Origin: Octopus vulgaris
Lineage: Eukaryota
Assembly (NCBI GenBank): GCA_951406725.2
Contig: OX597826.1
Span: 23,064,001-23,128,000, forward strand
DNA: 64,000 bases
Direction: 5' to 3'
Position 1 is the stretch's first letter. Every line of letters starts with the position of its first letter. Positions 3,751 to 63,762 of this stretch are shown one piece after another. The position numbers were made by a program, and so were the translations under genes. The notes under the pieces were generated by a model, which worked only from the letters and a program-made list of their open reading frames with translations, ran no database searches and had not been told where the DNA came from.

Positions 3751-4688
3751 GAGAAGAAGTACAATAAAAATAACAGTTCAAAAAAGTTCTTTTTAAAATA
3801 AACGATAGCTCGAAGAAGAAGAGAGTTCAAATTCAGACAAAGGAATTAATTTCTCGGCCGAAAAAGGTACTCCTGGCCAAATGTCCAATTGGTAAAATAC
3901 CTTGCAAAACCAGTCCTCGGTAATCCTTGGTACTCCGTGGTAAATTCAGTGAAAAACACAAAGACAATTTCAGAAGCAAACAAATTAATTTTTGCGGAGG
4001 GACTACGCCTCCTCAAAAACACAATTCTCACTGTAAAGTGAATCTTTACGCTCGACCACAGGCAGGAAAATGTCTGGAACAGAGTGGAGTCTTTTACTCA
4101 CCAAAAAATATTGGTAAAATTACAGATTAACACCCGCACGATTTTCACTGAAAAAAAAACAAAAAAAAACTGATTTTTTTACGTGGAATCAAGTACTGTG
4201 ACCTCGTAATATGCTGTAAATCCCATATTTGGGTTCGGAAGGGGGGGGGGGCTGACCCCCACCCACCCTTCCGAACCCAAATATGGGATTTACAGCATAT
4301 TACGAGGTCACAGTACTTGATTCCACGCAAAAAATCAAGCCCCCACCCTTCCGAACCCAAATATGGGATTTACAGCATATTACGAGGTCAGAGTACTTGA
4401 TTCCACGCAAAAATCAGAGTTCTTTTTTGTGTGAAAATTCCGGGGTGGGTGGGTTAATCCCCCCCCCCTCCGGACCAATTCCGAACCAAAATATGGGATT
4501 TCCAGCATATTAGGAGGTCAGGGTACTTGATTCCACGCAAAAAATCCGAGTTTTTTTTTTTCTTCGTGAAAATCGTGCGGGTGTTAATCTGTAATTTTAC
4601 CCAAAATTCAATATTTCACGACGAAAGACGTGACATCAAGCAGCAAGAACTCTCCGCCAAAAAAACACGTCCGACTTTGACGAAGGTT
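3751..4688 (-). mobile_element. 5' UTR of the ORF1-only non-LTR element, interrupted by a MITE and truncated at 3751
   Basis: Reverse complement aligns to 12237-12742 apart from the MITE at 4113-4601. Confidence 0.85.
4113..4601. mobile_element. MITE/foldback element with ~36 bp TIRs and internal ~80 bp subrepeats
   Basis: GGTAAAATTACAGATTAACACCCGCACGATTTTCAC at 4113 and its reverse complement ending at 4601. Internal unit CCGAACCCAAATATGGGATTTACAGCATATTACGAGGTCACAGTACTTGATTCCACG present once inverted and three times direct. Confidence 0.85.
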
Positions 4689-4700
4689 AGCAAGCTACTT

Positions 4701-5044
4701 TATTTTATCTAATTTGCCACAGGGCCATTACACAGATGTAGCTTTGCGGGCTGGACATAGACATTAATGGTATAAATGATGGTGATGGAACGAGGATGAT
4801 GATGGGAGAAGACGAAAGCGCCCGCCGACTTCCGTTTCTCTAAAACAATGTTCTTTTTTCCACAAATCATAATGAGGCAATAAACCTCTTACAATGTTCT
4901 TTTAAAATATACAGAAAGTTCAGGTTTCAATATAATACAATGTTCCTTCAAATATACAAAAAGTTCAGGTCACCCGGCCGACCAGCGCTCTTGTTTCAGC
5001 GAAGCACTCACTCAAAATAAACACGTCCGACTTCGACGAAGGTT
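4701..5044 (-). mobile_element. ~345 bp internally deleted mini-copy of the ORF1-only element (5' end joined to 3' tail)
   Basis: Minus strand reads AACCTTCGTCGAAGTCGGACGTGTTTATTTTGAG joined to the last ORF1 codons and the 3' UTR that matches 11920-12224, ending AAATAA before AAGTAGCTTGCT. Confidence 0.8.
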
Positions 5045-5078
5045 AACAAGCTACCTACTACACAGCCACTCCTGCGCC
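5045..5078 (-). mobile_element. 5' head (A-box part) of a tRNA-derived CORE-like SINE, cut at the insertion site
   Basis: Minus strand GGCGCAGGAGTGGCTGTGTAGTAGGTAGCTTGT matches SINE heads at 40636 (GGCGTAGGAGTGGCTGCGTGGTAAGTAGCTTACT) and ~57870-57898 (-). Confidence 0.75.
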
Positions 5079-6207: not shown

Positions 6208-6819
6208 TGTAACGAACTTAATGAGATGCGTGAATATCCTCGTGCACTTTTGGGGTGCACAAAGCAATCACTCACTAGCCGTTACTTAATAATCCAAATC
6301 TCTACTAGTCAGAAACAAACAGGACGCAGACGTAAAATATACATATAACTACTTTATTCTCTTTCTTGGTAAACAATAACAATAAGTGTGTTATCTGATG
6401 TCCTTGATTCTGGGCGCGCAAGGCTGAAAGTTAATAGATTGTAATATTTACAATCTTCAGCCCAAAACAGAAAGGGGTCAAGATGGCGTCGAACAATGGA
6501 GACGATGTTGGTCTGCAACAATTTTGGTTAAAAATCTTCGGCCAAAGGACTGCTAGAATCTAATCCTGACGGAGAGAATATATGCGTGACCGTCGCCGTC
6601 AATCGCTGGGTTCCCAAGTCACCGCTTGCTGGACGCTAGCGGTCAAACGTTCTACGACCCCCTTGCCTCGGTAACTGCTACGTAGGCAATAGGGTCGTGC
6701 TACGGGTGGTTCGCGCATGCGCGAGAGGGCCCTTCCTTTCTGTGCCTTGGTGAAGGCAACAACACGCGCGAAATACAAATGGTCGGTGCGCGAGCGCGCA
6801 CCGTTATAATATCACTACA
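6208..6819 (-). repeat. 3' LTR
   Basis: TGTAACGAAC...ATCACTACA; near-identical to 8333-8944 (one visible mismatch, CCTCGGTAAC vs CCTCGCTAAC). Confidence 0.95.
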
Positions 6820-6830
6820 GGCTCCCCTCC
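6820..6830 (-). promoter_or_regulatory. Polypurine tract
   Basis: Minus strand GGAGGGGAGCC abutting the 3' LTR. Confidence 0.8.
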
Positions 6831-8312
6831 AGTGCGTACGCACGAAAGGAAACTTATTGTAGTGACTGCAAAACTCAAGGTGGACACCAGATAACCAAAT
6901 AGCACACAATAATATAATGGCAAAATTTATAACATACACAAGAAATTTACTAAAGGAAAAAGAGAAAAAATACTCAATGAGCAAAAATCAAGAGTGCATG
7001 CATGAAAGTGTATACGTCACAAAGTATAGAGCCTTCCGCTGAAGGGAGCGAAAGAAAAGGCAGAACTCACTGTTAATGAACCTAAACGAAATTAAAATCC
7101 AACTTCTCTAAAGGTGGTTGATCCTGCAAAATAGCAGTTAAATCAATTGCTGCAGGAGAGGAAATGGAATTGGCAGAAGCTCGCTAGTAACACAAAAGGC
7201 AAAGGTGCAAACATGCTGGTGTGATGCGCGACACAGATAGTTTTCTGTTAATTACGTGACCAACAGTGGTCTAACAGGGAAAAATAATTACGCCTATAAA
7301 TCGGCGCAGCGCATTTGAACATCCGACGTCTTATGAGTCGGGAAAAACTAAGCTACTGCAAACGTGTTGCAAAAAACCAGGCAATACACGTGCGAAGCAA
7401 AAGGCGCATGAAATGCAATAGTGCTTGCCAGACCAAAAAACAGCAAGAATATGCCAGTGGTTAAGCGATTATATGCTTCGTTCGTATAGGAACAAAAGTA
7501 TGACATGCTGGCGCGTTATAATGGACAAACAACCCTCTCTATGTATACGTGACCAACCTAGGGTCTATAGAAATGAGGGGTGTCCACAAAAGGCAAATTC
7601 AGCATGGAAAAAAAAAAAGCGAGAAAAGCATGTGTGACGTATGTATGTGAGAGAGAGCATTTATGTGTGTGTACGTGTGTGCGACAGAAATACATACAAG
7701 GTGAATGCGAGCAAAATACAAAAAATACAGCGCATAGAAAAAATGTCTCTCGGGCTATTCCAGACAAGAATTAATTTACCAGTCTGTAATAGCCTGATGT
7801 ACAATAGCAGTTCGTTCTGTAACAGAATGTTGAAATCACAAAATGCAGATGCCGGTTGAACACATATCGTGTAACGGTTGTGGCTTCAATGCTGTGACAG
7901 GTTAACTGGAACAGAAGAAATCTCGTAGAAAGTGCTGTAAAATCCTTGGTGTGCTAATGCACAAACGGCAAGTGGACTAAACTTCCGCGAGTTGCTATGT
8001 ACATCTTGGTGGAGGTCGACGGTGTTGAAAGGCGACGTTGGTGGTGGAAGGCGACTGTAGTGGACTTGGGACTACATCGTTCTTAGTGATGATAGCGACG
8101 ACGTGAAGTAGACAGACGACGATGGTGATGAGGAAGGCAGAGAAAAAGCATCGATGAATTGATGGCGTTCGTCATCATGGCTCCTTCTACAACTGTTTGT
8201 GGTGGCCGGAAACAAATCGTCGAAAGATGAATGCGTAGTGTTAAATCGTGTTCCGACTTCGCAGAAAAACTGGATTTTTTTGTTGATAAGTGATCTCTGG
8301 TTTTAGACCAGA

Positions 8313-8330
8313 ATCACGTCGGGGTCACCA
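8313..8330 (-). promoter_or_regulatory. Primer-binding site, tRNA-Trp
   Basis: Minus strand TGGTGACCCCGACGTGAT 2 nt from the LTR, the canonical 18 nt tRNA-Trp PBS (as in Rous sarcoma virus). Confidence 0.92.
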
Positions 8331-8332
8331 CT

Positions 8333-8944
8333 TGTAACGAACTTAATGAGATGCGTGAATATCCTCGTGCACTTTTGGGGTGCACAAAGCAATCACTCAC
8401 TAGCCGTTACTTAATAATCCAAATCTCTACTAGTCAGAAACAAACAGGACGCAGACGTAAAATATACATATAACTACTTTATTCTCTTTCTTGGTAAACA
8501 ATAACAATAAGTGTGTTATCTGATGTCCTTGATTCTGGGCGCGCAAGGCTGAAAGTTAATAGATTGTAATATTTACAATCTTCAGCCCAAAACAGAAAGG
8601 GGTCAAGATGGCGTCGAACAATGGAGACGATGTTGGTCTGCAACAATTTTGGTTAAAAATCTTCGGCCAAAGGACTGCTAGAATCTAATCCTGACGGAGA
8701 GAATATATGCGTGACCGTCGCCGTCAATCGCTGGGTTCCCAAGTCACCGCTTGCTGGACGCTAGCGGTCAAACGTTCTACGACCCCCTTGCCTCGCTAAC
8801 TGCTACGTAGGCAATAGGGTCGTGCTACGGGTGGTTCGCGCATGCGCGAGAGGGCCCTTCCTTTCTGTGCCTTGGTGAAGGCAACAACACGCGCGAAATA
8901 CAAATGGTCGGTGCGCGAGCGCGCACCGTTATAATATCACTACA
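8333..8944 (-). repeat. 5' LTR
   Basis: Direct repeat of 6208-6819. Confidence 0.95.
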
Positions 8945-11100: not shown

Positions 11101-11792
11101 ACTATGATGTCTGTCTGCTCCCTCAGCCCTACCCCTAACAGATATTGCCTTCTGTTCTCTCAGCCTTAGATATGCAAGGATTTGATAAACTAGTCTATAA
11201 ATTAAAACTGACCCCATATAAACAAAAAAAATCAGTGACAGGCAGAGTCTGTAACAATGAATATCTTCTTGATACCTTAGTAACTTCTATGCTGGAGTGG
11301 AGACAGCATGTTTTTTGTCTATCTCCTTAACTTCTTGGAGATTTTAGGTATAATTATACTAATGTGTCCATCTGTTCTAATTTAATTAAATTCTATGTCT
11401 TTGTGCAGCTGAGGATTGCTCTGCATTTTAAATTGATGTAATGATTGCATTGTTCAATTAAGTGGAGTTGCATGAAACGATCGTACTGCATTACCTCTGG
11501 ATATCCTTGTTGCATATTTTGATTATATATATATATATTTCTTAGATTGGTTTAATTTGTAATGTAATATAAGGAGTTTTCATTTTAATTTATATTATTA
11601 TTTTAAAAATAAGTTTTTTTATTTTGTTTCAAGGTTTAGACTTTAAATTTCTAAATTTTTAGAGGTTTAATCTGAGTTTCTCAGATATGTTGAGATGGAA
11701 GGAATTTTTCCTGCAATTATTTTTCACTCGTTTTGATTTATTTATTTATTTATATGTAAGGGTAACTACTCTTTTACTCTTTTACTTGTTTC

Positions 11793-12224
11793 GGAGGACC
11801 CTGAGTGGCCTTCGCAGGTGGCTGCGGAGGTCATGGGATAGCGATCTGTGCAGGATCGTGAATTCCTTCCCGGAGGACTCCTATAGATTTGTACCTGTGT
11901 GGTCTTGCCTGGAACCGGCTGAGTGCTTCAATGAAGCAAGAGAGCTGGTCGGCCGGGTGACCTGAACATTTTGTATATTTTGAAGGAACATTGTATTATA
12001 TTGAAACCTGAACTTTCTGTATATTTTAAAAGAACGTCGTAAGAGGTTTATTGCCTCATTATGATTTGTTGAAAAAAGAACATTGTTTTAGAGAAGCGGA
12101 AGTCGGCGGGCGCTTTCGTCTTCTCCCATCATCATCTTCGTTCCATCACCATCATTCATACCATTAATATCCAGCCCGCAAAGCTACATCTGTGTAATGG
12201 CCCTGTGGCAAATTAGATAAAATA
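11793..12224 (+). mobile_element. 3' fragment of the ORF1-only element (ORF1 end plus 3' UTR)
   Basis: Encodes ...DSDLCRIVNSFPEDSYRFVPVWSCLEPAECFNEARELVGRVT* (stop 11965), homologous to 14820-14985; 3' UTR ends AAATAA then AAGTAGCTTGCT (12225-12236). Confidence 0.85.
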
Positions 12225-12822
12225 AAGTAGCTTGCTAACCTTCGTCGAAGTCGGACGTGTTTTTTTTGGCGGAGAGTTCTTGCTGCTTGATGTCATGTCT
12301 TTCGTCGTGAAATATTGTATTTTGAGGCTCGACTACAGGTAGGCGTTTGTTGTATTTTTTGAGGGCTTAGTGGAGTGTGTTGCTCTGTATTTAATATTTT
12401 TTGGTGAGTAATAGACTCCACTCTGCTCCAGACATTTTTCTGCCTGTGGCCGCCTATAAAGACTCACTTTTGCAGTGAGAATTGTGTTTTTGAGGAGGCG
12501 TAGTCCTCCGCAAAAATTAATTTGTTTTGAAATTGTCTTTGTGTTTTCCACTGGATTTACCACGGAGTACCAAGGGTTACCAAGGACTGTTTTTGCAAGG
12601 TATTTTACCAATTGGACAAATGGCCAGGAGTACCTTTTCGGCCGAAAAATTAATTCCTTTGTCTGAATTTGAACTCTCTTCGAGCTATCGTTTATTTTAA
12701 AAAGAACTTTTTTGAACTGTTATTTTTATTGTATTTCTTCTCTTCTGTTGTGTTTTCCTTCTCCTTTTTGTGTCTTATTTTCTTTTCTTACATTTTGAAC
12801 TTTAATTGAACTTTGTGTTGAA

Positions 12823-13962
12823 ATGGCAAAGGAATTTCTCGTGTGGGACTTGAAACCTCCCAAAAAATATTTACAAGAGCTGGAAAGAAAGACCGTGGTG
12901 TTGAGGACTTATTTGAAGTCGCTCGACACCATAGCCGTCTTCCCGAAGGCCACAATTTTAAATGAGCTGGCAGACTACATGCCAGCCATTAAATTTATCT
13001 CACGGGCAGTGAAATACGCAACGGTCTGGTTGCTATTTGACTCCCCAAAGAAGCTTGCGACTTCGCAAGCCAGCCCCTTGAGGGCAAAGAAATATTGTTT
13101 CTTCCAAATTATATGGGGAAAAAATTATTGAAAGCTTGGATCTGCGGCCTACCACCCGGAGTTGAGCCCGAATGGATAGAGGACTCTATCCGCCGGGGTC
13201 TGGATGGTAGCAGTGCCAAGCTGCTGAATGTTAAAGTGTTGCCTGCGGCAGATTGGGAGGGGTCGAAAGCAGTTTTGACCCTATGGATCCAATCAGCCGA
13301 AAGTCTGGTTTTTCCAGATTTCTTGAGGACGGCTGGGTCCAGGTATCCGGTGATGCTTGAGGGACGCCCCCCCCACAAGTGTCACCTGTGCCTGGAGATG
13401 GCCACATTAAGAAGAATTGCCCCAGGGACCAAAGTAGAATCCTGGAGTAGTTAATGGTGGAATCTCTCCCTGCCCCCCCCCCCCAATGGAGGGAGAGAAG
13501 CAGAAGAGTGACGAGGAGGTTGTTACATCCTCAAAACGTAAAAGAAAGGTGGACAACAATGGTGACCCACCGAAAGACCCGGGAGCTGCGGGAGAAAAGA
13601 GGACCCGTTGTGTGCACTACAGGAACCTCAAACTCCCGCGGCCCATGGAAAAAAGAAAAAAAGAAAAAAGAGAAACGGGACGCCGCAGGCGGATTGTGAC
13701 ACGCAGACGGCGTCTCCCGAGCCTCCTCAGGCGGATGTGCCCCCGGAGGTCAGAGATGTGGTCCTCTTCCACAAAGGAGGGACCATTGAGAATGAAATAA
13801 GGAAAATGAAAAGGAGGGGCCAATGGGAGGGACTTCGGTCCTGCACGGAGGACCCTGAGTGGCCTTCGCAGGTGGCTTCGGAGGTCTTACGGGAAAGTGA
13901 TCTGTGCAGGATCGTGAATTCCTTCCCGGAAGACTCCTATAGATTTGTACCTGTGTGGTCTT
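12823..13962 (+). pseudogene. ORF1/gag-like protein copy A (RRM-like region plus CCHC knuckle), frameshifted
   Basis: ATG at 12823; stitched frames give MAKEFLVWDL...VWLLFDSP...KAWICGLPPGVEPEWI...LVFPDFLRTAGSRYPVMLEGRPP.CHLCLE.GHIKKNC followed by a K/E-rich tail. Confidence 0.75.
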
Positions 13963-14985
13963 CCCGAGTGCCACAATTTTGAATGAGCTGGCAGATTACA
14001 TGCCAGCCATTAAATTTTTTTCACGGGGAGTGAAGTATGCAGCGGTCTGGTTGCTATTTGACTCCCCCCAAGAAGCTTGCGATTTTGCAAGTCAGCCACT
14101 CGAGGAAATCATGTTTCTTCCAAGCTACTGTGGAAAGAAATTATTGAGAGCTTGGATCTGCGGTTTGCCACCCGGAGTTGAGCCCGAGTGGATAGAGGAC
14201 TTTATCCGCCGGGGTCTGGGTGGTAGCAGTACCAAGCGGCTGATTGGGAGAGGTCAAAAGCTGTTTTGACCCTATGGACCCAATCAGCCGAAAGTCTGGT
14301 CTTTCCAGATTTTTTTAGGATGGCCGGGTCTAGGTATCCGGTGATGCTCGAGGGACGCCCCCCCCCCAAGTGTCACCTGTGTCTGGAGACCGGCCACATT
14401 AAGAAAAACTGCCCCAAGGACCAAAATAGGATCCTGGAGCAGTTAATAGTGGAATCTCTCCCTGCTCCCTCAATGGAGAGAGAGAAGGAGGAGGATGACG
14501 AGGAGGTTTCTACATCCTCGAAAAAAACGAAAACGAAAGGTGTACAACAATGGTTGACCACCGAAGGACCCGAGGGCTGCAAGAGAGAAGGAGGACCTGT
14601 TGCGTGCGTCACAGGAAACTCACCCTCTCGCGGCCCAAGGGAAAAAGAAAAATGGGACATCGCCGGCGGGTTGTGACACGCTGCCGGCGTGTCCCAATCC
14701 TCCTCCGTCGGGTGTGCCGTTGGAGGATGAATTTGTGGTCCTCTTTCACAAAGGAGGAACCATAGAAGAAGAAGTAAAGAAAATGGAAAGGAGGGGGCCG
14801 ATGGGAGGGACTTCTGTCCTGAGTGGCCTTCACAGGTGGCTGCGGAGGTCCTATGGGATAGTGATCTGTGCAGGATCATAAATTCCTTCCCGGAGGACTC
14901 CTATAAATTTATACCTGTGTGGTCCGGCCTGGAACCGGGTGCATGCTTCAATGAAGCAAGGATACTGGTCGGCCGGATAACCTGA
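13958..14985 (+). pseudogene. ORF1/gag-like protein copy B, 5'-truncated and diverged from copy A
   Basis: VFPSATILNELADYMPAIKF...CHLCLETGHIKKNC (CX2CX4HX4C)...FNEARILVGRIT*. Confidence 0.75.
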
Positions 14986-15268
14986 ACGAGTCTAAAAAAT
15001 GTGAAGCATGTGACTTTTTGTGTGTTTTAAAAAAGAAAAAAGAATTCTGAACACTGTGTTGTTTAAGCAAGAGGTTTATTGCCTCATTGTGTTTTTGGGG
15101 GAAAAGGAAAAAAGAACATTGTTTTAGAGAAGCGAAAGTCGGCGGGCGCTTTTCGTGTTCTCCCATCATCATCATTTTTGCCTCACCATCATTCATACCG
15201 TTAATGTCCATGTCCAGCCCGCAAAGCTGCCATCTGTGTAACGCCCTTGTGACAAATTATATGAAATA

Positions 15269-15657
15269 AAGTAGCTTGCTTACCAAGCACATGGTTCCGG
15301 GTTCAGTCCCATTGCGTGTGCGTGGCACCTTGGGTAAGTGTCTTCTACTATAGCCTCGCGCCGACCAAAGCCTAGTGAGAGGATTTGGTAGATAGAAACT
15401 GGAAAGAAGCCCGTCGTATATATGTATATGTATATATATGTGTGTTATTGTGTGTCTGTGTTTGTACCCCCAACATCGCTTGACAACCGATGCTGGTGTG
15501 TTTACGTCCCTGTAACTTAGCGGTTCGGCAAAAGAGACCGATAGAATAAGTACTAGTCTTACAAAGAATAAGTCCTGGGGTCGATTTGCTCGACTAAAGG
15601 CGGTGCTCCAGCATGGCCACAGTCAAATGACTGAAACAAGTAAAAGAGTGAAGAGAG
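15269..15657 (+). mobile_element. tRNA-derived CORE-like SINE body (from the insertion site onward)
   Basis: AAGTAGCTTGCTTACCAAGCACATGGTTCCGGGTTCAGTCCC...CACCTTGGGTAAGTGTCTTCTACTATAGCC...GAAACAAGTAAAAGAG; same family as 19925-20315. Confidence 0.88.
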
Positions 15658-15981: not shown

Positions 15982-16507
15982 TTGGGTTGTCCGGAAAGTT
16001 CGTGTCGATTTATAGTAGCTTACCTTTCGATTTATTTTAGAACGTAGTTGAGTCCATACTCGTGAAATAGGATTTGACTACACATCCATTTAGAGCACAG
16101 TTTAAGCTATCTTTTCGTGGAAGAAGGTTTATGTTCCTATAACCTGTGTTATTTTCGGCACTTGATGCTTTGGGAACCAGACAAAAATTGCTGCAGCTCG
16201 GCTGGGATGTGTTAACCCACCCTCCATATTCACCAGATATTGCTCCTTTGGATTTCAGGTCTCTGCAGAATAGTCTTAATGGTAAAAATTTCAATTCCTT
16301 GGATGACGTAAAAAGATACCTGGATGAATTCTTTGCCATGAAACCACCTCAATTCTGGGAAGAGGGTATTTTCAAGTTAAAGGGAAAGATGTAGACGCAT
16401 TGTCCAACAAAATGATTCATATTTGGCTGATTTAAAATGTAAAGGCAGGTATTTATTGACCTTTTTCTTTCCTTTAAAAATCGGCACGAACTTTCCGGAT
16501 AACTCAA
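15982..16507 (+). mobile_element. Internally deleted mariner
   Basis: TIRs TTGGGTTGTCCGGAAAGTTCGTGTCGATTT / AAATCGGCACGAACTTTCCGGATAACTCAA, TA flanks; GWDVLTHPPYSPDIAPLD motif. Confidence 0.9.
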
Positions 16508-16650
16508 TATATTATATATTTTTTTACGATATATTACGCGCAGAACAGTTGGAATTCTTTGATTTGTCGTTTTTCTTTTCCGTCCTAATTCTTAACCCGC
16601 TTCCTTCCCCCTCCCCCCTCCTCAGTAGACCTAATCAATGATTAACCTGT

Positions 16651-16748
<98 letters not shown>
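16651..16748. repeat. (GATA)n microsatellite (one of many TA/CA/GATA/TACA tracts)
   Basis: Directly visible. Confidence 0.95.
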
Positions 16749-16749
<1 letters not shown>

Positions 16750-17101
16750 ACAGGCAGGCAGACAGGCTGGCAGACAGACAGACATATGTCATATACAAAG
16801 AGTATTATTATTGTTCTTTGTCTTTGTAGCTTAATTAGCAATCTAATAGTCATTTGTGATAATAATAATAACAAGAGTTCATTTGTAAAAACAACTAGCT
16901 CTATTGTTAGGCAGATTCTTTCACCTGTTTTATATTAATAACAAGCTTTATAACGCACACACACACACACACGCAAACACGCACACGTGTGCGCGCGCAC
17001 ACAAGATAATTTTACGAAAACGGAAGAGCTGTAATTAATCATTTGTATGTGTGTGCTTGCGTGTGTGAGTGTTTGTGTGTATTTGTATGGCTATGTATGC
17101 G

Positions 17102-17203
<102 letters not shown>

Positions 17204-17422
17204 TATGTATATACTTATTGGCGCAAACACGCTGTCATAAACATATTTAGCATTAGATATTGGATTTTGTACGCATTTTGTATATGGTGGTCATTGAGTG
17301 CGTTTTCATGTGTGTCCGAGCGTGTGTGTGTGCATGCATGTTATGTATTTTTAAACACACACACACACACACACACATACAAGAATCGTCACACATACAT
17401 GTATATAAGAATCACTTGATGT

Positions 17423-18180
17423 ATATACGAAGTGTAGTAAAAAAGTATCCGATCTTGATTTTCTTTTTCTTGTTTCTTTTTTTGCACAAAATAATAATGG
17501 GTCAGCAAAATCCGTATGGGTGTTATGTGGCTGCGTCCTTCCTGAGCATGGGCAGTAGGTTGCGCCATTCGCCCGCAGTGACGCGTTGGGTACAGACATG
17601 AAGAGTGTGCTGTGCGGCTTCTCTTCTTGAGTCAAGATGACCGAGAGCATTGCACGAAGATACTCTACCAAATACTTGGTGATAAGCAAGCCCAGACTAT
17701 CGAGAAGATTCAAAAGGCCTTTGGAGATAATGCAATGGGGAAAATAGAAATAAAGGAGTGGTACAACTGGTCCAAAGATGACCGCATCTCAGTGAATAGT
17801 GAGCCATATTGTGGCCAGACATCGTCGCCTTAGTGCGGCGAAAACGACCCAGCCTGTGGGCAGCAAAAGAACTGGCAACTCCGCCATGACAACACACCCG
17901 CTCATTCCGCCCACGTTGTCCAAGCATTCCTCGTCGAGCAAAACACCACATGTTCGTCAGGTTTCCTCTCCCAGACTTGGTTCCGTGTGAGATTTGGCTA
18001 TCCCTAAAGCAAAAAAAAAAACACTCAAGGGAGAAGATTTGAGTCAATAGAGGACATTAAGCAAAATTCAACGGCACAGCTCTACAGCTTCCCGAAAATT
18101 GATTTCCAGAAATATTTCCAGCAGTGGCAGGAACGCTGGCAAAAGTGTGTAGACTCCCAAGGCGAATATTTTGGAGATAT
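17423..18180 (+). pseudogene. Decayed, deleted mariner transposase
   Basis: HTH region GDKQAQTIEKIQKAFGDNAM..IKEWYN; HDNTPAHSA-like and SPDL-like remnants. Confidence 0.7.
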
Positions 18181-18199
18181 TTAAACTAATTAAATTTCA

Positions 18200-19313
18200 T
18201 TTTGCAGGATAATCTGCAAACATAGAAGAGTCTAAGGAGCATTTGAGGTACATACTGCTTTATCACTTTAAAAGGGGGAACTCTGCAGCTGAAGCAATTC
18301 GAAATATTCACTCAGCTTATGGAGAAGAGTGTCTGAATGAAAGAACTTGCAGAAGGTGGTTTGGAAAAATCAGAAGTGGAAATTTCAACCTTGAGGATGA
18401 GGCTCGAACAGGACGTCCAATTGAGTTTGATGGCAAGCTCCTTTTGGCAGAACTTGAAAAAGATCATGCAGTTTCAGATGAAGAATTTAAGAAGCAAACT
18501 TCATTCAAGCCATGCAATTGTTTACCTTCATCTTCAACAGCTTGGATAGGTCCCAAAACTCAGAAAATGGATGCCTCGTGATTTGTCTGAAACCAACCGC
18601 AAATACCAAATGGACATCTGCTCTTCTCTTCATTCTCGTGAACTCTTCTCGGACAGACTCATTCTGGGCAGACTGGTGACCGGTGATGAAAAATAGGTAT
18701 TTTATCAAAATGTTTAGCGTCGTAGACGTTGGCTTAGTGAAGGGGAAAATGCCCAACCACAACCGAAAAGGGAACTCCATGCGAAGAAGGTTCTTCTCTC
18801 TGATTCATGGGATTGCAAAGGGGTCGTCCACTTTGAGTTGCTACCAACTAATGCAACAATCAATGCTCAAATCTATTGTTAGCAATTAGAGCGTTTGAAC
18901 ACTGCTTTGAAGAAAATAAAGACTTGCTTTAGTGAATCGAGAGAAAGTGGTGTTTCTTCAGGACAATGCAAGACCACACACTGCAAAGATCATGTCACAT
19001 ATGATCGAGAAACTTGACTGGAAAAAATTTACTCATCCATCTTATTCCCCAGACCTTGCTCCTTCAGATTACCATCTGTTCCGTAGTTTATAGAATCATT
19101 TGGAGGGATTAACTCTCGGAACAATTGAGGAAGTTGCAATTGATCTTTCAGAATTCTTCACTTCGAAACCAAAAGAGTTTTTCACTAATGGAATTAAAAA
19201 TCTTACGAGTAGATGGAAAGATGTGATCAAATCTTATTATCTAAGAGATAATAAGATTTGATCACTTGTTTTTCCTTATTTAAAATCCGAACATTACTCA
19301 TGAGATGACCTGA
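18200..19313 (+). pseudogene. Near full-length decayed mariner transposase
   Basis: YILLYHFKRGNSAAEAIRNI..ERTCRRWF..LEDEARTGRP; WMPRDL, LVTGDE, QDNARPH, HPSYSPDLAPSDY motifs across frames. Confidence 0.88.
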
Positions 19314-19559: not shown

Positions 19560-19924
19560 TAAACAACCTCGCAACACCGGACGCTACTACAAGTTTAATG
19601 GCTATAGAAGTACTTAATGTTCTGTAGTTAAAATTATTTAGATTAATCGGCCAAAAGATATAAATACTGCATTAAAATACTTTTTATATGATACATACAT
19701 ATATATATATATGTATGTATCATATATATATATGATATATATAAATATATATATGAGATATATATATATTATATAAATGTATCTATATATGAAATATATA
19801 TTTATATATATCATACATATAAATATGATATATATATATATGATATATATATATATATATATATATACATGATACGAGAATGAAGAGAAGAGCAGATGTC
19901 CATTTGGTATCATGTATATACATG

Positions 19925-20315
19925 TGTGGTAAGTAGCTTGCTTACCAACCACATGGTTCCGGGTTCAGTCCCACTGCGTGGCACCTTGGGCTATTGTGTC
20001 TTCTACTATAGCCTCGGGCCGACCAAAGCCTTGTGAGTGGATTTGGTAGACGGAAACTGAAAGCAGCCTGTCGTACATATGTATATATATATATGTATGT
20101 GTGTGTTTGTGTGTCTGTTTTTGTCCCCCTAGCATTGCTTGACAACCGATGCGGGTGTGTTTATGTCCCCGTCACTTAGCGGTTCGGTAAAATAGACCGA
20201 TAGAATAAGTACTGGGCTTACAAAGAATAAGTCCCGGGGTCGAGTTGCTCGACTAAAGGCGGTGCTCCAGCATGGCCGCAGTCAAATGACTGAAACAAGT
20301 AAAAGAGTAAAGAGT
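19925..20315 (+). mobile_element. CORE-like tRNA-derived SINE with uninterrupted target site
   Basis: GTGGTAAGTAGCTTGCTTACCAACCACATGGTTCCGGGTTCAGTCCC; serves as the empty-site reference. Confidence 0.88.
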
Positions 20316-20316
20316 A

Positions 20317-20376
<60 letters not shown>

Positions 20377-20503
20377 TAATTAAGGGCTAAAGAGGGTTAT
20401 TCTAAAGCCAATACACCGATTTATCCACTTATAATCCGCTTGCTACAGGAGAATTGAAACTGAAAACGGGCAACTAACCTTTAGAAAATTTAAATTTCGT
20501 TAT

Positions 20504-20565
20504 CTCTATATTGAATCAATTTCGGAATTAATCTTATAAAAAGATATATTCTTTCTTCAGTAGAG
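20504..20565 (-). ncRNA. Type I hammerhead ribozyme (inverted copy)
   Basis: Reverse complement of 20944-21005. Confidence 0.65.
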
Positions 20566-20943
20566 CTTTCGATGGGATATAAATAAAATACTCACGTATG
20601 ATCATGGAAAAAGCACAAGCTAAAAACATAACTACACTTGAGTACATCATTTATATCTAAAAATAAAAATTCTTTAAATATACTGCCCACGCTTCCTGAT
20701 GGATTCCTTTTCAGTAGAGAAAGGGACTTCATCCTATATTGTTAGTAGTAAACTCGCTGCTTGCTACGGGAGGACCGGTAACCATTACAATTTGTAGCGG
20801 CGAAAGGTCAAGACGTTGTTTCTGAGGCTGACCAAAGAATTTTTATTTTTAGATATAAATGATGTACTCAAGTGTAGTTATGTTTTTAGCTTGTGCTTTT
20901 TCCATGATCATACGTGAGTATTTTATTTATATCCCATCGAAAG

Positions 20944-21005
20944 CTCTACTGAAGAAAGAATATATCTTTTTATAAGATTAATTCCGAAATTGATTCAATA
21001 TAGAG
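20944..21005 (+). ncRNA. Type I hammerhead ribozyme
   Basis: Stem I CTCTA/TAGAG, core CTGAAGA, stem II GAAT..ATCTT/AAGAT..ATTC, GAAA, stem III ATTG-ATT-CAAT, cleavage triplet AUA. Confidence 0.7.
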
Positions 21006-21240
21006 ATAACGAAATTTAAATTTTCTAAAGGTTAGTTGCCCGTTTTCAGCTTCAATTCTCCTGTAGCAAGCGGATTATAAGTGGATAAATCAGTGTATTG
21101 GCTTTAGAATAACCCTCTTTAGCCCTTAATTATATGATGTTTATACTTCAACCGTAACGGTTTTTTTAAATACACTGCCCACGCTTCCTGATGGATTCCT
21201 TTTCTGTAGAGAAAGGGACTTCATCCTATATTGTTAGTAG

Positions 21241-21308
<68 letters not shown>

Positions 21309-21309: not shown

Positions 21310-22155
21310 TAGCAGAATTGCCCGGCGTTGCTCGGGGCTGAATTGCTTGAAAGTACTGTTAATGATTGCACTGAATTATGATGATTATTCAGGCAAATAT
21401 TGATATAAGTTTACGGTGGGAGATAAGGACTTAACGATAAAACGTGTGCCATTGCATTGTTTTGGGGGAACCAAATTTCTGATGAGCATTATAGGGGCAC
21501 CAACTTTAAGTTTGAGAAAGTGTGGTGGTAGTCCGGGGTGCTCAAAGGAATTGAGTACCTCTATTGGATAGTTGATGACGTCCTCTGGGTCAGGAGTTGT
21601 ATCGATAGACTGATATACATAGACTTCCCCAGGAATGAGTTTTAGCATTTCATCATTAATATGGTGAACAGTTTTATTCCTCGGGGCCAGTATAGCCTTT
21701 TTGCCAATCCAATCCATATTCTGATAATTAGCTTGTAGATCTGGGAACACTGCATCTCTGAGATCAGAAGGCGTCTTAACAATGGTACAAATGGAATCGA
21801 TGGCAATATTACCATTTTCATCCCCTGGTATTTTGCCTTCGCCAAGTGCAAGGAGGGTGTGAGGAAATGCTGCTGATGTGATATTACGTCGCATATGAGC
21901 ACGCATATTGGTGTGAAGTTTGAGAGTTACTTCCCTTTATTAAAAAAATATGCATTAAAATGGAAAAAAATGATGGTAAATTATTTGTAAAATCATAGAC
22001 TCATCGTAGACGCGCGCTAATAACCCAGAAGGGCTCGATATGAATCACGACTATAAGATACCCGGTTTTGGTTAAACTGCATTGCAAAATGTGGGAGTAG
22101 TTAGGAATCTAAATCGGAGTAGACAGACACACAACCTTTCTTTTATATATAAATA
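21309..22155 (-). mobile_element. Helitron derivative carrying a PIF1 helicase fragment
   Basis: 3' hairpin CCCGAGCAACGCCGGG plus CTAG|T on the minus strand; ORF 21385-21906 has AILAPRN, HINDEML, PPHFLKLKVGAPIMLIRNL..CNGTR (RepHel helicase). Confidence 0.9.
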
Positions 22156-22998
22156 TTTTCGTCCTAAAAAACTTTGTATGGATTGAATGGTTACCTCTAT
22201 GGAAATATATACACGCACATTATACATACATCTGTGTATAGATGAATATATAAATACATTTAAATATCTATATACACTTTTGGGCGATCGTTCTTTTTCT
22301 TAGAGATAACTTTAGATCTTATATTCGTCCTAAAAAACTTTGTATGGAGTGAATGGTTACCTCTATGGAAAAATATACACACACATTATACATACATCTG
22401 TGTATAGATGAATATATAAATACATTTAAATATCTATATACACTTTTGGGCGATCTTTCTTTTTCTTAGAGATAACATTAGATCTTATATTCGTCCTAAA
22501 AAACTTTGTATGGAGTGAAAGGTTACCTCTATGGAAATATATACACACACATTATACATACATCTGTGTATAGATTAATATATAAATACATTTAAATATC
22601 TATATACAGTTTTGGGCGATCTTTCTTTTTCTTAGAGATAACTTTAGATCTTATATTCGTCCTAAAAAACTTTGTATGGAGTGAATGGTTACCTCTATGG
22701 AAATATATACACACACGTTATACATACATGTGTGCATAGATGAATATATAAATACATTTAAATATCTATATACACTTTTGGGCGATCTTTCTGCTACTTG
22801 TATATACTTTAGATCTTATATTCGTCCTAAAAAACTTTGTATGGAGTGAAAGGTTACCGCTATGGAAATATATACACACACATTATACATACATCTGTGT
22901 ATAGATGAATATATAAATACATTTAAATATCTATATACACTTTTGGGCGATCTTTCTGCTACTTGGATATAGGTCTTATATTCGTCGTAAAAAACTTT
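22153..22998. repeat. Minisatellite, ~166 bp unit x5
   Basis: ATATTCGTCCTAAAAAACTTTG recurs at 22321, 22487, 22653 and 22818, with variants at 22153 and 22978. Confidence 0.92.
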
Positions 22999-24334: not shown

Positions 24335-24408
24335 TTAATTATAAAACAATACAACTGAAGTATGTTTAGTTAACCGGAACACGAGTTCCTTATACAAAGC
24401 TTCTACAG

Positions 24409-24463
<55 letters not shown>

Positions 24464-24497
24464 GTACGTATATATTTGTTGTGCAAGATTTTTTATA

Positions 24498-25820
24498 CTA
24501 GGAGCTAGTATAAGAGTTACCCTAAAAGGTCACACGTTTAAGTTTAACAATAAAATATATGCCCAGGACGAGGGGGAAGCCATTGGCGTTAGTATCGCTG
24601 GTGATGTAGCCAACCTTTTCATGGTATGGTGGGACAGAAGACTTAAAGAACGCCTAACACAGAACTCCATACTCATAAACATGTACTCTCGCTATGTTGA
24701 TGATATCAATATAGTGGTAAAGGCACCCCCACAAGAGAGTACTGTTGATATAGTAATAGAAACTAATACTATGGAGAGCATCCAGCAAATAGCTAACTCC
24801 ATCCACCAGAGTATTAAGGTCACAATAGACTACCCCACTAAACACCCCAACCATAGACTACCACTACTAGACACTGAACTCTGGCTAGAAATTGTGAATA
24901 ATAAAACCCAAATCCTTCATTCGTACTATGCCAAACCTATGGCCTCAAAATACTTGATCCACCGGAACTCAGCCATTGCGGACAATGCCAAATTCAATAT
25001 TTTGATGGCAGACCTCATCAGAAATGTGTCACGCATGTGCGAGCCTACAGAGTTAAAGAGACACATACAATATTTCATTCACCGCATGCAGTTCTCAGGT
25101 TACAGCCATAAAGAAAGGATCAGAGTATACAAAGGAGCCATGAAGAAATTTGATAATATATTATGTAATGATAGGAATGGGATTTGCCCACTCTATAGGA
25201 ACAAGTCATGGAACACTATAGAAAGGACAAAAAAGAAAATAGGGAAGGCCAACTCTTGGTATGATAGCCATAAATACCAGAGTGTCATGTTCGTTGACAC
25301 CACCCCTGGAGGTGAACTGGCGTACTGCTTTAGAAGGACTCTAGGCAAACTTAAGCTAAGGATTAAGGTTGTTGAAAAGCCAGGCAACCATATCAAATCT
25401 ATAATTGGTAGAACCTATCCTTTTAGTAGAACCCCCTGTATGGATAAGTACTGTACTGTATGTAGATTTAGCCCACAAACAAACTGTAAAGCCAGAAATG
25501 TAGTCTATAGTATAAGATGTATAGAGGGACGATGCAGTAACAAGACAACGACATACGTAGGGGAAACGGCAAGAAGCATAGGAGAGCGGGTAAATGAACA
25601 TTGGTGACAACTCAAGGAAGGTAAAAGCTCATCGATTCTGTACCAACACGCCGAACAGGAACACGGGGGATCAATCAACAACATAGACATTAAAGTATTG
25701 TCCATACATAGAACAGATGCAACAATCAGACAAATTACAGAAGCTACACACATAATAGAAAATAAACCTAGCCTGAATAGGAAACTAGAATGGAACACTA
25801 GCACACACCACAACATATGA
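24498..25820 (+). pseudogene. 5'-truncated Penelope-like element: RT plus C-terminal GIY-YIG endonuclease
   Basis: IYAQDEGEAIGVSIAGDVANLFM..YSRYVDDI..LPLLD..; PCMDKYCTVC..NC..VVYSIRC..TYVGETARS; one in-frame TGA (25605-25607), then continues to KPSLNRKLEW. Confidence 0.9.
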
Positions 25821-30139: not shown

Positions 30140-30835
30140 CTCACAATAAAAGGGAACACTGGTAGCATGTACCATTGAAGACCTCAAGCACAACACACCC
30201 GATATAATGATTTGGGATAGAGAAGAAAAACTGTGTACAGTTATGGAAATTAGCTGCCCAGCAGATGTTAACATAAAGCTGAAGATTAGTGAAAAAGAGA
30301 ACACCTATGCTGAACTATTGAGAAATCTGCAGTTACTCTATGCAGATTACAAGTTCAGGTTTATACCTGTAATTATTGGGACCTTGGGATATGTAACACA
30401 CTGCCTAAATACCAATCTTGAGAAATTAGGCTTCTTAAAACCAAAAAGGAGAAAGCTAGTTCGAAGACTACAGGTCCAATCCTTCACTGGAACTGTAAAA
30501 ATCTGTAAAACTTTCCAGAAGTTTAACATTGAAATGTATATGATATATAACTATATGCATGAGAATACATACATAAAACATACAAATCTATATATGCATG
30601 TATGTATGTATGTATGTATGTATGTATGTACATGCATACATACATACGTACATACATATATACACATACATACATACATACATGCATGCATACATACATA
30701 CATACATGCATACATACATACGTACATACGTACACTATTGTTGATATTGAAATTTCAATGAAGAAGCCTTGGCTCTGGGCTAGAAGCGGTTCTTTCTCTA
30801 TTGGCAAGAAATCTTGAAATAAACTGAATAATGAT
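30140..30835 (+). mobile_element. 3' end of an RLE-type non-LTR retrotransposon (R4/Dong-like)
   Basis: HNTPDIMIWDREEK..VMEISCP..EKENTY..IPVIIGTLG: PD-(D/E)xK-type endonuclease; flanked by (CA)n and (TACA)n. Confidence 0.75.
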
Positions 30836-40541: not shown

Positions 40542-40635
40542 TAATTAAAAAAATATAAAATATAAATATAAAAAATATAAAATTCCAAATTAAAATATTT
40601 AAATTAAAGTTAAATTAAGTTTATATATATATATA

Positions 40636-41050
40636 GGCGTAGGAGTGGCTGCGTGGTAAGTAGCTTACTTATGAACCACATGATTCCGGGTTCAGTTCCA
40701 CAGCGTGACACCTCGGGCAAGTGTCTTCTACTATATATTTCTTTACTACCCACAAGGGGCTAAACATAGAGGGGACAAACAAGGACAGACAAAGGAATTA
40801 AGTCAATTACATCGACCCCAGTGTGAAACTGGTACTTTATTTATCGACCCCAAGAGGATGAAAGGCAAAGTCGACCTCGGCGGAATTTGAACTCAGAACG
40901 TAACGACAGACGAAATACCGCTAAGCATTTCACCCGACGCGCTAACGTTTCTGCCAGCTCGCCGCCCCGAGTGTCTTCTACTATAGCCTTGGGCCGACCA
41001 AAGCTTTGTGAGTGGATTTGGTAGATGGAAACTGAAAGAAGCCCATCGTA

Positions 41051-54030: not shown

Positions 54031-57000
54031 GATGGCTGTCTACTTGTGACCGAGGAAGACCATTGCCATCCTTCAGGAACATTGTGCGCTCTAGGACTAA
54101 CTTATATTTTGCATTTGCGGCTCCATTGGTGGCTAATGAGCCCTGCTCTTGACAAGCATACACGACTGCAAACATTGCAGACCAAGCTTTCCCCATTCAC
54201 TATACGAGCCGTGCGCTTTCGCGTAGCTCGCTTAAGTTCTTCATGCTGGATATGTGCTCTCTCAAAAGTGTCGATCCCCTCCTTAACCTGCCTCCTCCAT
54301 CTGTGGCGATGACAGGCATTGTTCTCCCAGTTAGTATCCTGCATATCACAGGCCTTTAATGAGGACCTGACACAGTCCTTAAATCGCAGCCTTGGTTTCT
54401 GCCGGAGTCTCCTTCCATTCACAAGTTCTCCATAGAGCATCTGCTTAGGAATCCTTCTATCCTCCATTCTAATAAGGTGTCCAGTCCAACGCAACCGGTG
54501 CTTGTGTACCATCGCCTCAATACTCAAGATATCAGCTGTCCTCAGGATCTGTGTGTCTGGAATTTTTGAGGTTCAGCCAACATTGAGAATGTGTCTGAGA
54601 CATCTCTGATGAAAACGTTCAAGGACCCTTACCTGACATTTGTACAGAGTCCATGTCTCACATGAGTAGAGAAGCGATGTCAGTACACAAGCACGGTACA
54701 CAGCAACTTTTGTTCTCCTTGCAATGCCATGTTGGGACCAGACACGAGACTGAAGAGACCGGAAAGAATTAGTTGCTCTCTGCAACCTGAAAGATATTTC
54801 CTCATCCAGGGAGCAAGAACGGCTGAGTGTGCTGCCCAGGTAGACCAACTTGTCTACTACCTTCAGAATTGTTCCTTCAACCAAGATAGCTGGTTCTATA
54901 TATGGATTTCCTGGTGCAGGCTGGAACATTACAACAGTCTAGTCCAGGCTAATGCTGAGTCCAAATGCCCTGCAAGAAGCAGAAATGCAATTCATGAGTA
55001 TTTGCATGTCATCCACTGTATGAGTGACTAAGTCCCAGTCATCTGCATAAAGGAGGTCACGAATAATAGACTGGGAAACCTTTGAAATCGGTGAAGATTA
55101 AAGAGGCGGCCAGAAGATCGATACCTGACATATATTCCCAGAGAGCTAACCTTAGCAAAAGCATGAGTAAAAGTAGCAGCAAAGTACAAAGAAAAGAGAG
55201 TTGGGGCAAGGATGTCACTCTGCTTAACACCATTCTCTACAGGAATGGGTCCCGCCATGGCACCACCAACATTGACCCAAGCCTCCATCCCATCATGAAA
55301 TGATTTAATTATAGATACAAAGTGATCCGGACATCCAAGTTTGCCAAGTATTTTCCATAGAAAGGCCCTATTTACAGTATCAAAGGCCTTAGTTAAATCA
55401 ATGAATACCTGGACAAGATCCATATTCTGCTCATAGCACTTCTCCTGCATCTGTCTTGCTGTGAAAATCATATCCATTGTCCTTCTACCAGATCGGAAGC
55501 CACATTGAGATTCAGATAGGAAATCATTTACAAGACACCCATTCAGACGAGTAAGAAGAATATTTGCCAGAACCTTGCCAGCAGCTGATAGTAGAGCAAT
55601 ACCTCTGTAGTTACCACACATTGTTCTGGCTCCTTTTCCCTTATATAGAGGAAAAATAATTGCATCCTTCCAGTCCTTAGGGATTGCACTAACCCTCCAG
55701 ACTGCACTAATAAGTTCATGAAGGGACTGTGTGATGCAATTACCACCAAATCGCAAGACCTCAGCACAAATTCCATCCTTTCCAGGTGCCCTACCAAGAT
55801 TCAATTTACTTATTGATGTCATTACTTCATGTATTGATGGCGAGGAGTCTAAGGAGTCAATGATAGGTCTTTGTTTCATAGTATCAATCACTGTTTCATC
55901 CACAACTGACTCATGGTTTAGGAGTTCAGAGAAGAGTTCGATCCAGCGACCTGTGATTTCTGTTGATTTAGTAAACAGAGTGGAAGACTCCTTGGAAAGC
56001 AAAGGAGCTGATGTGGAGCTCTCAGGTCCATAAGCTCACTTCATAAGATGGTAAAGCTTCTTGCTGTCATTTGCATCAGCAGCAGCCTGAACATCACGAG
56101 CAAGATCCTCCCACCAAGTGTTTTGCATCTTCCTGAGAGATTGCTGCAGTAGTGATTTTACACTGTTATAGTGGGCAAGTGCTAGACTTCGCTGCACAGT
56201 AGACAGTTCTCTGTGCAGCAACACACTGTGGGCATGGCACTTTACCACTAATAGCCGTTGAATTTCAGCATCATTCTCATCAAACCAGTCTCTGTATCTC
56301 TCAGTAACATACCCCAGTGTTTCGGCTGCACATTGAACAACCTGGTCTCGAAAATCTTCCCATCCTGCAGCATTTTCAATGCTGGACAAGCGAGTCTGAA
56401 GCTCTTTCCTAACCACATCATATACCTTGTGAACATTTAGACGGCAAGGAATGCTGACTGGCCCTCTTCTCTCTTTCGCCCTAATCACCATTTGGAACTT
56501 TGCTCGCACCAGACTGTGGTCTGTCCAGCATTCTGATCCATGCAAGGACTTGACATTACAAATGTCATAAATGTCGCGCTTGCGGATGATGACGTAATCC
56601 AGCAAGTGCCAACCTTTGGACCTTGGATGCATCCATGTTGTGTGATCACCTTTGTGCACAAAATGAGTACTTGCAATGTAAAGTCCATGTTCTTCGCAAA
56701 GCTCCAGTAGCATGAGACCATTGCTATTCATTTTCCCTACTCCAAAACGTCCTAGAGAGCTCCATGTTTGCCAGTCTGTTCCAACTCTGGCATTAAAATC
56801 CCCCAGTAGAATGACTTTATCAGAATTGGGGATTTTTCTAAGTATGGCTCTCAGCTGGGTATAAAAGATTGTTTTATCTTCATCACAGCTAGTCAAAGTA
56901 GGTGCATAGGCACTTATTAGAGTAGCAAACTGCTTACCCTTCAAGTGCAACCGTAGGGTCATTATACGTTCATTTATAGGAACAGGGAGCTCTTCCAACT

Positions 57001-57720
57001 TCTTAAGGATATCAGATCGGACTGCAAAACCAGCACCAGCCTCTTTGCCTTCTGCCTTCCTTACCAAAATAAGGTGTATCCACCTCCTACTTCCTCAAGC
57101 TGACCATCACCTTCTTTAAGAGTCTCTGAGAGTGCAGCTATTTCAATTTTATAACCGTTCAGCTCACAAGCAACAAGTGCAGTGCGTCTTTCAGGCCTGC
57201 AATCACTCTTGTTGTCCAACAGAGTGCGCACATTCCAACATGAAATGTTTACATTCCGTCCAGATTTTATAGATAAAAAACTCTTCGTCAGTCGCGCTAA
57301 ACTGACCAGATATGGAAAGACAGGCAATTTTTGGTTCACCTTTTCTAGAACCTCCCCGGTCTCCAGGTGAGCAGTGCCCTCTCCAAATGGAGCTGCTCCG
57401 ACACCCATGCAGCACATTCCAACATGAAATGTTTACATTCTGTCCAGATTTTATAGATAAAAGACTCTTTGTTTTTCGAGCGCAGGGTGGACATTCGTCA
57501 GTCGCGCTAAACTGACCAGATATGGAAAGACAGGCAATTTTTGGTTCACCTTTTCTAGAACCTCCCCGGTCTCCAGGTGAGCAGTGCCCTCTCCAAATGG
57601 AGCTGCTCCGACACCCATGCAGCAACCGAATCCTACCGCTGTCTTGGGCGACGAGGAGACAACTTTATATCTAGCATGGGCCGCCTAAGTGCAGGTCACT
57701 GACTACATGCTTCCAACCCG
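54031..57720 (-). mobile_element. Near full-length RTE LINE (APE endonuclease, RT, C-terminal C2H2-like finger), disrupted
   Basis: WNVRTL..IAALSET, SAYAPT, LLGDFNARVG, WMHPRSKGWHLLDY, TDHSLV; APGKDG, NYRGIALL, QCGFR, FIDLTKAFD, GVKQ; CNVCSRVCLSRAGLISH. Inserted into the (TA)n tract of a SINE (53766-54030 / 57721-57900). Confidence 0.93.
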
Positions 57721-60438: not shown

Positions 60439-60633
60439 TGACCCGCCCACCCACCCCCTCTACACATGCCGGAAGTTCCTATTCTTTTCATCCCTGGGTT
60501 GCTTCCCTTGAAGACTGCAAATGCTCTTTCACCATCCCTACCCCTAGTTTCGACCTAGGTAAGGTAATGATCATACAGTGCAAAATATGAATGGGTAGTA
60601 TTACGCAGGTTGAATTGAAGGCTACTGTATTAC

Positions 60634-63600: not shown

Positions 63601-63762
63601 ACCCTGGCAGTTGAGGGGACCTGTGGAAGAGGTAGACCCAGGAAAACCTGGGTCGAGGTGGTGAAGCACGACCTTCGAACTCTAGGTCTCACCAAGGAAA
63701 TGACCAGAGACCGAGACCTATGGAAGTATGCTGTGCGTGAGAAGACCCGGCAAGACCAGTGA
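60634..63762 (+). pseudogene. RTE LINE ORF (APE endonuclease, RT, PHD-type finger), one in-frame stop
   Basis: TLNVGTL..CMQEVRW, SAYAPQ, AGDFNGHVG, QIDYIL; KAPGPSG, NYRGIKLL, QFGF, FVDMEKAFD, GVHQGSVLSP, LYADD; TAA at 61336-61338 is the only interruption seen. Confidence 0.93.

Follow-up and report, generated by a model that had tools for sequence, protein, structure and literature searches.

An ORF1-only, SINE-targeting retroelement of octopods with a DPE-like motif that points into its target duplication

Two arrays of a short retroelement lie in the window, the stretch of 64,000 nucleotides of Octopus vulgaris DNA analysed here. The element is an ORF1-only, non-autonomous non-LTR retroelement of octopods which probably belongs to the Tx1 group. 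Its target is an abundant tRNA-type SINE, in which the insertion point is flanked by the A box and the B box and is marked by a 12-bp target duplication. On the plus strand the array is composed as follows (positions are those of the window):

11792..12224, plus strand: copy A, the end of ORF1 (stop at 11963-11965) and the 3' UTR; the 5' part is lost
12225..12236, plus strand: upstream 12-bp target duplication, separating copies A and B1
12237..12822, plus strand: 5' UTR of copy B1; the first element base is A12237, and the first four bases agree at 3/4 with the continuation of the target
12253..12260, plus strand: DPE-like motif, 8/8 to RGACGTGY (the T included), at +17 of the element and +28 from A12226
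12260..12267, plus strand: run of eight T directly after the motif, which would terminate Pol III transcription from the SINE A box
12823..13960, plus strand: ORF1 of copy B1, ATG at 12823, frameshifted; two RRM-like domains and a CCHC knuckle
13958..15268, plus strand: copy B2, 5'-truncated and of a second subfamily; ORF1 stop at 14983-14985, 3' UTR to 15268
15265..15270, plus strand: AATAAA across the element end and the downstream duplication, with no poly(A) tail
15269..15280, plus strand: downstream 12-bp target duplication, the same 12-mer as at 12225-12236
15281..15655, plus strand: body of the interrupted SINE, including B box and tail; identity to the empty SINE (19931-20320) is 89%

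The non-LTR nature of the element and its insertion by TPRT are indicated by the 12-mer that flanks the B1-B2 unit, by a 3' end that is fixed in 3/3 cases, by the 5' truncation of B2 and by the lack of terminal repeats. In copies A and B2 the ORF1 stop runs straight into a UTR of 260-280 nt, and B2 is devoid of EN and RT. This composition of 5' UTR, ORF1 and 3' UTR with neither endonuclease nor RT is that of HAL1 (half-L1; PMC5753468), which in contrast derives from mammalian L1 and encodes a type II Transposase_22 ORF1, whereas the octopus element encodes an ORF1 of type I, goes to one fixed target and lacks a poly(A) tail. Copies B1 and B2 are joined at a 5-bp microhomology and are identical at 826/944 aligned bases of ORF1; along the arrays, subfamily and age are confounded. 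The stretch 11790-12950 is matched by 687, 672 and 758 contigs from three large runs (three organisms) and by 98 from a fourth, counts which identify a multicopy family, contig depth not being copy number and not being used to rank parts of the element. At its upstream end, copy A is fused directly to an inverted SINE tail (about 11767-11792), which a deletion between two opposite SINEs could explain. The 3' UTR also contains a GC-rich hairpin (12091-12126) whose sequence is well kept in A, B2 and the minus-strand copy m1 described below; it is a candidate recognition site for the RT, with a z of -2.07 in A and of -0.69 and -0.37 in the other copies.

The reading frame at 13041-13451 shares 73% identity with P0001, a protein of Octopus sinensis. 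A search of all 50% representatives with P0001 retrieved 47 proteins at E up to 0.001; of the 20 looked up, 13 carry octopod names (O. sinensis, O. vulgaris, O. bimaculoides, Argonauta). A zf-CCHC match is present in 16/24 aligned family proteins at E up to 0.1 and in copy B2 at an E of 0.0016, which is below the curated cut-off. An AlphaFold model of ORF1 (mean pLDDT 78.6) predicts two RRM-like domains. The best solved matches in Foldseek are tandem-RRM proteins at a low global TM of 0.2, and Atlas leads for ORF1 stand at 0.90-0.92. ORF1 is thereby assigned to type I (RRMs plus CCHC knuckle), which in animals other than mammals is consistent with Tx1, a type I ORF1 not being unique to that group (PMC5203782). 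Eighty L1-Tx1 families, 13 of them recently active, are reported from O. vulgaris (PMC13282606). In a tblastn search of the element with the endonuclease and RT of an RTE from the window the best E was 0.036, for a short match on the opposite strand that is not credible; as no ORF2 partner was found, we infer the enzyme and the clade. A profile search yielded 2 proteins and a single-protein word search 1, and no named Tx1 ORF1 was reached; a scan with a distant relative (P0051) gave 201 pattern matches and no relative. The remaining proteins of the family (P0002-P0047) form a diverse group of octopod RRM-plus-CCHC ORF1 proteins (22-36% identity), several of them on contigs of 1.7-1.9 kb, and may mark many ORF1-only families, perhaps with other targets. 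In one of them (P0015) the N-terminus is fused to an integrase, probably an annotation artefact.

A second array is located on the minus strand, and empty SINEs elsewhere in the window serve as references for the target:

5057..5078, minus strand: SINE head with A box (5068-5058), the sole 5' junction in the window with SINE upstream
5045..5056, minus strand: target 12-mer carrying two substitutions, with G at the predicted +1
4701..5044, minus strand: copy m1, an internally deleted derivative of about 345 bp, motif at 5028-5021
4689..4700, minus strand: target 12-mer between m1 and m2
3751..4688, minus strand: copy m2, 5' UTR only, motif at 4672-4665, 3'-truncated
19923..20320, plus strand: empty SINE, the target reference; others at 40634-40735 (plus) and 57900-57721 (minus)

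In m1 a 5' end of about 32 nt, which stops directly behind the motif, is joined to the end of ORF1 and the 3' UTR; the deletion joint is also found in at least one contig of a sequencing run (X20) which may be the window's own source. The copies are close siblings, the three 5' ends being alike at 84/87 positions (96.6%) and the 3' tails of A and m1 at 272/279. Copies A and m1 both have G at 12099 and 12200, where most of the summed contig depth has another letter. Copy m2 is split at about 4601-4113 by an element whose terminal inverted repeats are long but imperfect (82% over about 160 bp), and about 50-65 bp of its 5' UTR are missing at this site.

Insertion is sequence-specific, since within the window a SINE head is found at one 5' junction and a SINE body at one 3' junction, and the 12-mer of 12225-12236 recurs in the empty SINE at 19931. 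The junctions are uniform: the element starts at the identical base after the 12-mer in 3/3 cases, and the 3' junctions share an identical last base and have no A tail (3/3). Among the loose contig ends listed (24/541), three contigs from run X1 diverge at 12240 and pass into SINE-body sequence, and as these contigs run from the element end through the 12-mer into the SINE body, same-site 3' junctions exist outside the window. The SINE is classed as tRNA type by its boxes. ARAGORN reported 0 tRNAs in the window; three tRNA-derived octopus SINEs were described in 1994, as given in the reference list of PMC4758252. Pattern scans for the junctions or for SINE heads found 0 loci in metagenome, viral and genome contigs. 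Four bacterial hits from a 20-mer scan were all dropped, as they match over only 20-26 nt and 2.2 are expected by chance.

The bottom-strand nick implied by the 12-bp duplication falls at a TT/A step, which resembles the preference of the L1 endonuclease (PMC2912911). At the 5' junction the upstream bases of the rebuilt nick site agree with the empty site at 8/10 positions, compared with 0/10 at the tandem and 3' junctions, and this junction retains the upstream half and nearly all of the downstream half of the target. The 12-mer at 5056-5045 has two differences from the middle 12-mer of its array, which fits a target-derived TSD, decay or an RNA-borne copy equally well. An AATAAA straddles the 3' junction at 12221-12226 and at 15265-15270, with the same arrangement at the 4701/4700 junction; its last two A's can be assigned to either the element or the target. 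Cleavage usually takes place 10-30 nt downstream of a poly(A) signal. With the signal lying across the junction, the transcript would be cleaved at or beyond the end of the downstream 12-mer.

The SINE is itself a potential source of transcription, as the element is inserted directly downstream of an intact A box, and it could be co-transcribed by Pol III from the SINE promoter. The B box is, however, displaced by at least 345 bp, and none is found in the first 200 nt of the element, whose RNA must moreover be translated. Runs of T act as Pol III terminators. This role is also stated in PMC4494074, and the element has a T8 run at 12260 and 14 further runs of five or more T. The displaced B box together with the T8 run would exclude Pol III read-through, and co-transcription by Pol III is accordingly rated as highly improbable, the lowest of all the explanations considered.

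The DPE-like motif offers an alternative source of transcription. GGACGTG starts at 12253; counted as +28, it places +1 on A12226, which is base 2 of the 12-mer (12225-12236). Both this position and the shared spacing that the earlier note had described are borne out, as the distance between the start of the 12-mer and the motif is 28 nt in 3/3 copies (12253 on the plus strand, 5028 and 4672 on the minus strand); these are siblings, and the second subfamily (B2) has no 5' end, so conservation of the motif is compared among siblings only. RGACGTGY has four matches in the window on both strands, of which three are element starts and the fourth is within an RTE ORF (60802). A match within 40 positions has a chance probability of 0.0009-0.0015 under Markov models and 0.00275 when the first 60 nt are shuffled, while the loose consensus RGWYV is uninformative (67%). 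According to PMC2377424, RGACGTGY is the sole promoter sequence that is conserved among Drosophila non-LTR elements. Its presence near the 5' end is a feature that the octopus element shares with fly LINEs (jockey, I, F, G, Doc), Penelope, TRAS1/SART1 and the Pr77 promoter of L1Tc (PMC2377424, PMC4748587, PMC5580651). Judged from sequence, the agreement of the motif with the DPE of fly LINEs is genuine and not due to chance.

The position of a start depends on the spacing that is applied. With 8/8 matches the motif lies in the +28 to +32 interval of a fly-type DPE, the +1 being assigned from the motif itself. In flies the spacing is a strict +28 (PMC5580651), and in L1Tc the CGTG is found at +25 (PMC4748587). 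As the motif lies 16 nt past A12237, a start with fly or L1Tc spacing would fall within the duplication, at about 12226-12232. A strict +28 Inr-DPE arrangement had been attributed to many invertebrate LINEs; this is a Drosophila result, whose application to molluscs would be an extrapolation, and annelid DPE promoters are described as having no particular features, with starts that follow a pyrimidine-purine rule (bioRxiv 10.1101/2020.05.07.078311). On the sequence evidence a start inside the target duplication is plausible, and the region is a candidate promoter.

Among the differences listed from the matching contigs (40/169 substitutions, 12/90 indels), the only change within 12225-12259 is C to A at 12256. 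Of those listed, A at this position makes up 0 of the summed depths of 340.8, 109.5 and 179.8 in runs X18-X20, and the single X1 contig that covers 12256 has A (8.5 of 8.5 depth), which breaks the DPE, together with 13 other differences. Another X1 contig, covering 12225-12401 with 5 letters unaligned, was rejected as a mark of the start site, as a branch in the assembly graph would also be expected to give a contig end there; run X1, only presumed to be RNA, does not serve as evidence of expression.

The earlier note had also proposed that the 5' end of the element mimics its target at 15 of 16 positions. The count is correct at the two tandem junctions when these are compared with the empty SINE, but 12 of the 15 matches are the duplication itself. 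Beyond the duplication there is a 3/4 match (AACC versus TACC) with a chance probability of 0.049 and no further extension, and at the SINE-headed junction (5056, minus strand) the match is 13/16 with G rather than A at +1. These numbers are compatible with a plain target site duplication in which the spacing is incidental, the RNA starting at the first base of the element, at dispersed sites or by host read-through, and the 3/4 match being due to chance or a fossil of captured target. Outside flies the DPE is spaced differently (PMC4748587), transcription of full-length human L1 frequently begins in the upstream flank (PMC2912911), and SINEU-3 forms tandem arrays with a TSD between units (PMC4494074), all of which is in keeping with such an explanation. 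Against it, an exact 8-mer LINE DPE near the 5' end is unlikely by chance, m1 retains about 32 nt of the 5' end that finish just after the motif, and a start at A12237 would leave the motif at +17, nearer than the fly and L1Tc spacings. An ordinary duplication with incidental spacing is possible but doubtful.

A stricter proposal is that the SINE target supplies a needed initiator (TAAGT), so that only correctly targeted copies are transcribed. The empty target does match the fly initiator TCAKTY at 4/6 positions, with the A at the exact DPE spacing, but 7% of positions in the window do equally well, and this TAAGTA is present only in the empty SINE sites scored (3/3). TAAGT is found at 0/3 real junctions, which read AAAGTA, AAAGTA and TAGGTA (-2 to +4) and each reach 3/6, a score attained by 18% of window positions. 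The CA core of a fly-type initiator at -1/+1 is lacking: every context has A at -1, where the fly and mammalian initiator carries C (TCAGTY/BBCABW; PMC5580651), and an A at -1 is likewise at odds with the annelid pyrimidine-purine rule. The first bases of the element itself provide no usable initiator at DPE spacing, with the motif at +17 from A12237. The SINE has a perfect 6/6 TCAGTY about 35 nt further on, which is not the target. A SINE-headed 5' junction would be the best-scoring context for such a licence.

The proposal that targeting completes the promoter is not supported by the content of the RNA either, which would carry +1 onward. If +1 is A12226, the RNA holds eleven bases of the 12-mer, and a full-length cDNA would bring the initiator core anywhere; a mistargeted full-length copy would keep most of its initiator, since +1 to +11 are RNA-borne. 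The flank would contribute two bases only (-2/-1), as in any LINE with an internal promoter. A strict licence by the target is considered unlikely.

The 5' end could alternatively be generated by an HDV-like ribozyme to which, as in R2, the target contributes the first helix. Pairing is possible between 12284-12290 and the opening 7 nt of the 12-mer (z -2.5, for boundaries picked post hoc), and in L1Tc a DPE is accompanied by an HDV ribozyme (PMC4748587). Yet a permissive custom descriptor gave 0 hits in 2 copies while matching 12/60 random windows, and 5-10% of random 67-nt windows fold equally well. Rfam found no ribozyme in 12150-12850 at E up to 10, where its 4 hits are at chance level, and 0 hits at gathering score in the window. 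The long, G-U-rich 5' hairpin at 12225-12291, in which a change in m2 keeps the pair, was rejected as its z of about -2.5 is within the range of 5-10% of random windows. A ribozyme-made 5' end is very improbable, only slightly less so than transcription by Pol III.

The model that we favour, to which we assign an even chance, combines a targeted ORF1-only element with a DPE-driven Pol II start in the upstream TSD and with copies of the target carried at both ends of the RNA. A Tx1-group ORF2 partner would act in trans, and GGACGTGT would work as the DPE of a Pol II internal promoter of the fly LINE type. Transcription would start inside the upstream duplication, at or near A12226, so that about 6-11 nt of target sequence would form the beginning of the RNA, and an RNA end past the downstream 12-mer would provide the second target copy. 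The RNA-borne target copies could then pair with the nicked bottom strand, where reverse transcription would start, and the end of the cDNA could anneal to the top-strand overhang. These pairings would, by analogy to R2 and R1, give rise to the identical 5' junctions and to 3' junctions with no poly(A) tail. Full-length R2 insertion depends on the presence of target RNA at the 5' end, and in R1Bm target RNA aids first-strand synthesis (PMC6895275). The octopus element would resemble R2 and R1 in that RNA-borne target sequence is proposed to guide both formation of the 5' junction and first-strand priming, but whereas R2 obtains its target RNA from a ribozyme-cut Pol I co-transcript (PMC6895275), the octopus element would do so through a Pol II start and a poly(A) signal placed over the TSD copies. 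In the favoured model the target overlaps the promoter and would add only -2/-1 from outside the RNA. Inr-DPE LINEs start at their own first bases (CATT in Hebe; PMC2861651), whereas the start of the octopus element is predicted to lie in the TSD, where the initiator match is poor.

A more far-reaching version of this model is that the target completes the transcription unit at both ends, with the Pol II start in the upstream TSD and the AATAAA in the downstream TSD. The 12 bp would then act as a miniature terminal repeat which couples targeting, expression and the next insertion, and only copies at the SINE site would make RNA with target sequence at both ends. This extension is tentative and, on balance, doubtful.

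Regeneration of the target by each insertion had been offered as the cause of the tandem arrays. The best copy of the nick site (8/10) is indeed found at the 5' junction, and as the rebuilt junction is the best target for a second round, arrays should grow at their 5' side. On the other hand, TSD-separated arrays without 5' mimicry are already described for SINEU-3 (PMC4494074).

Several target-specific LINEs of the Tx1 group have been described, including Tx1L in Tx1D, Keno in U2 genes, and Tx1-Mar together with SINEU-3 in Mariner-N4_AMi (PMC4494074). The octopus element resembles these in its use of one site in a multicopy repeat, with a TSD of 12 bp (16 bp in SINEU-3), in the TSD-separated tandem copies, in the type I ORF1 with RRMs plus CCHC and in the existence of non-autonomous riders (PMC4494074). 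It differs from the Tx1 LINEs in that it targets the head of a tRNA-type SINE between the A and B boxes and is devoid of ORF2. Unlike SINEU, for which PMC4494074 reports that no promoter motif was found, it has a DPE-like motif that points into the TSD. A literature search, mostly of titles and the beginnings of abstracts and leaving aside most subscription papers and Repbase Reports, found no description of this element, of an octopus LINE that targets a SINE or of a DPE with its start in a TSD. The O. vulgaris consensus library on Zenodo, which lies outside this comparison, may already list the family. From its sequence the octopod element is best described as a new member of the class of target-specific, non-autonomous LINEs, with a promoter that is predicted; the earlier claims of mimicry and of a target-supplied initiator were overstated.

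Little is known of the precision of 5' junctions in site-specific LINEs other than R2, or of transcription in the Tx1 group. If the favoured model is true, a Pol II element would gain target-homologous RNA ends with neither ribozyme nor co-transcription, a DPE would be functional in a mollusc, and the arrangement would provide a design hint for precise retrotransposon-based insertion. Should the promoter idea fail, a new but ordinary octopod SINE-targeting ORF1-only element remains.

The window as a whole is repeat-rich animal DNA. A non-coding LTR-type element lies in reverse orientation at 6208-8944, inside an RTE-like LINE fragment, and looks very young, with 612-bp direct repeats that are 99.8% identical, a 4-bp TSD and primer-binding and polypurine-like sites. 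A 312-bp inverted repeat of 99% identity at 20364-21242 represents a young foldback element or MITE, and 22154-22998 is a tandem array of about 166-bp units that are 90-95% alike. Two RTE-like LINEs with endonuclease and RT are found at 60619-63762 and 55028-57094; the former has a single stop between its two ORFs, and just upstream of it lies a 274-bp direct repeat (59488-59761 and 60165-60438; 99%). By-eye likeness further points to a Penelope RT/GIY-YIG at 24345-25607, the end of an RLE-type LINE at 30150-30761, a Helitron helicase at 21385-21936 and mariner transposases at 16000-19300.
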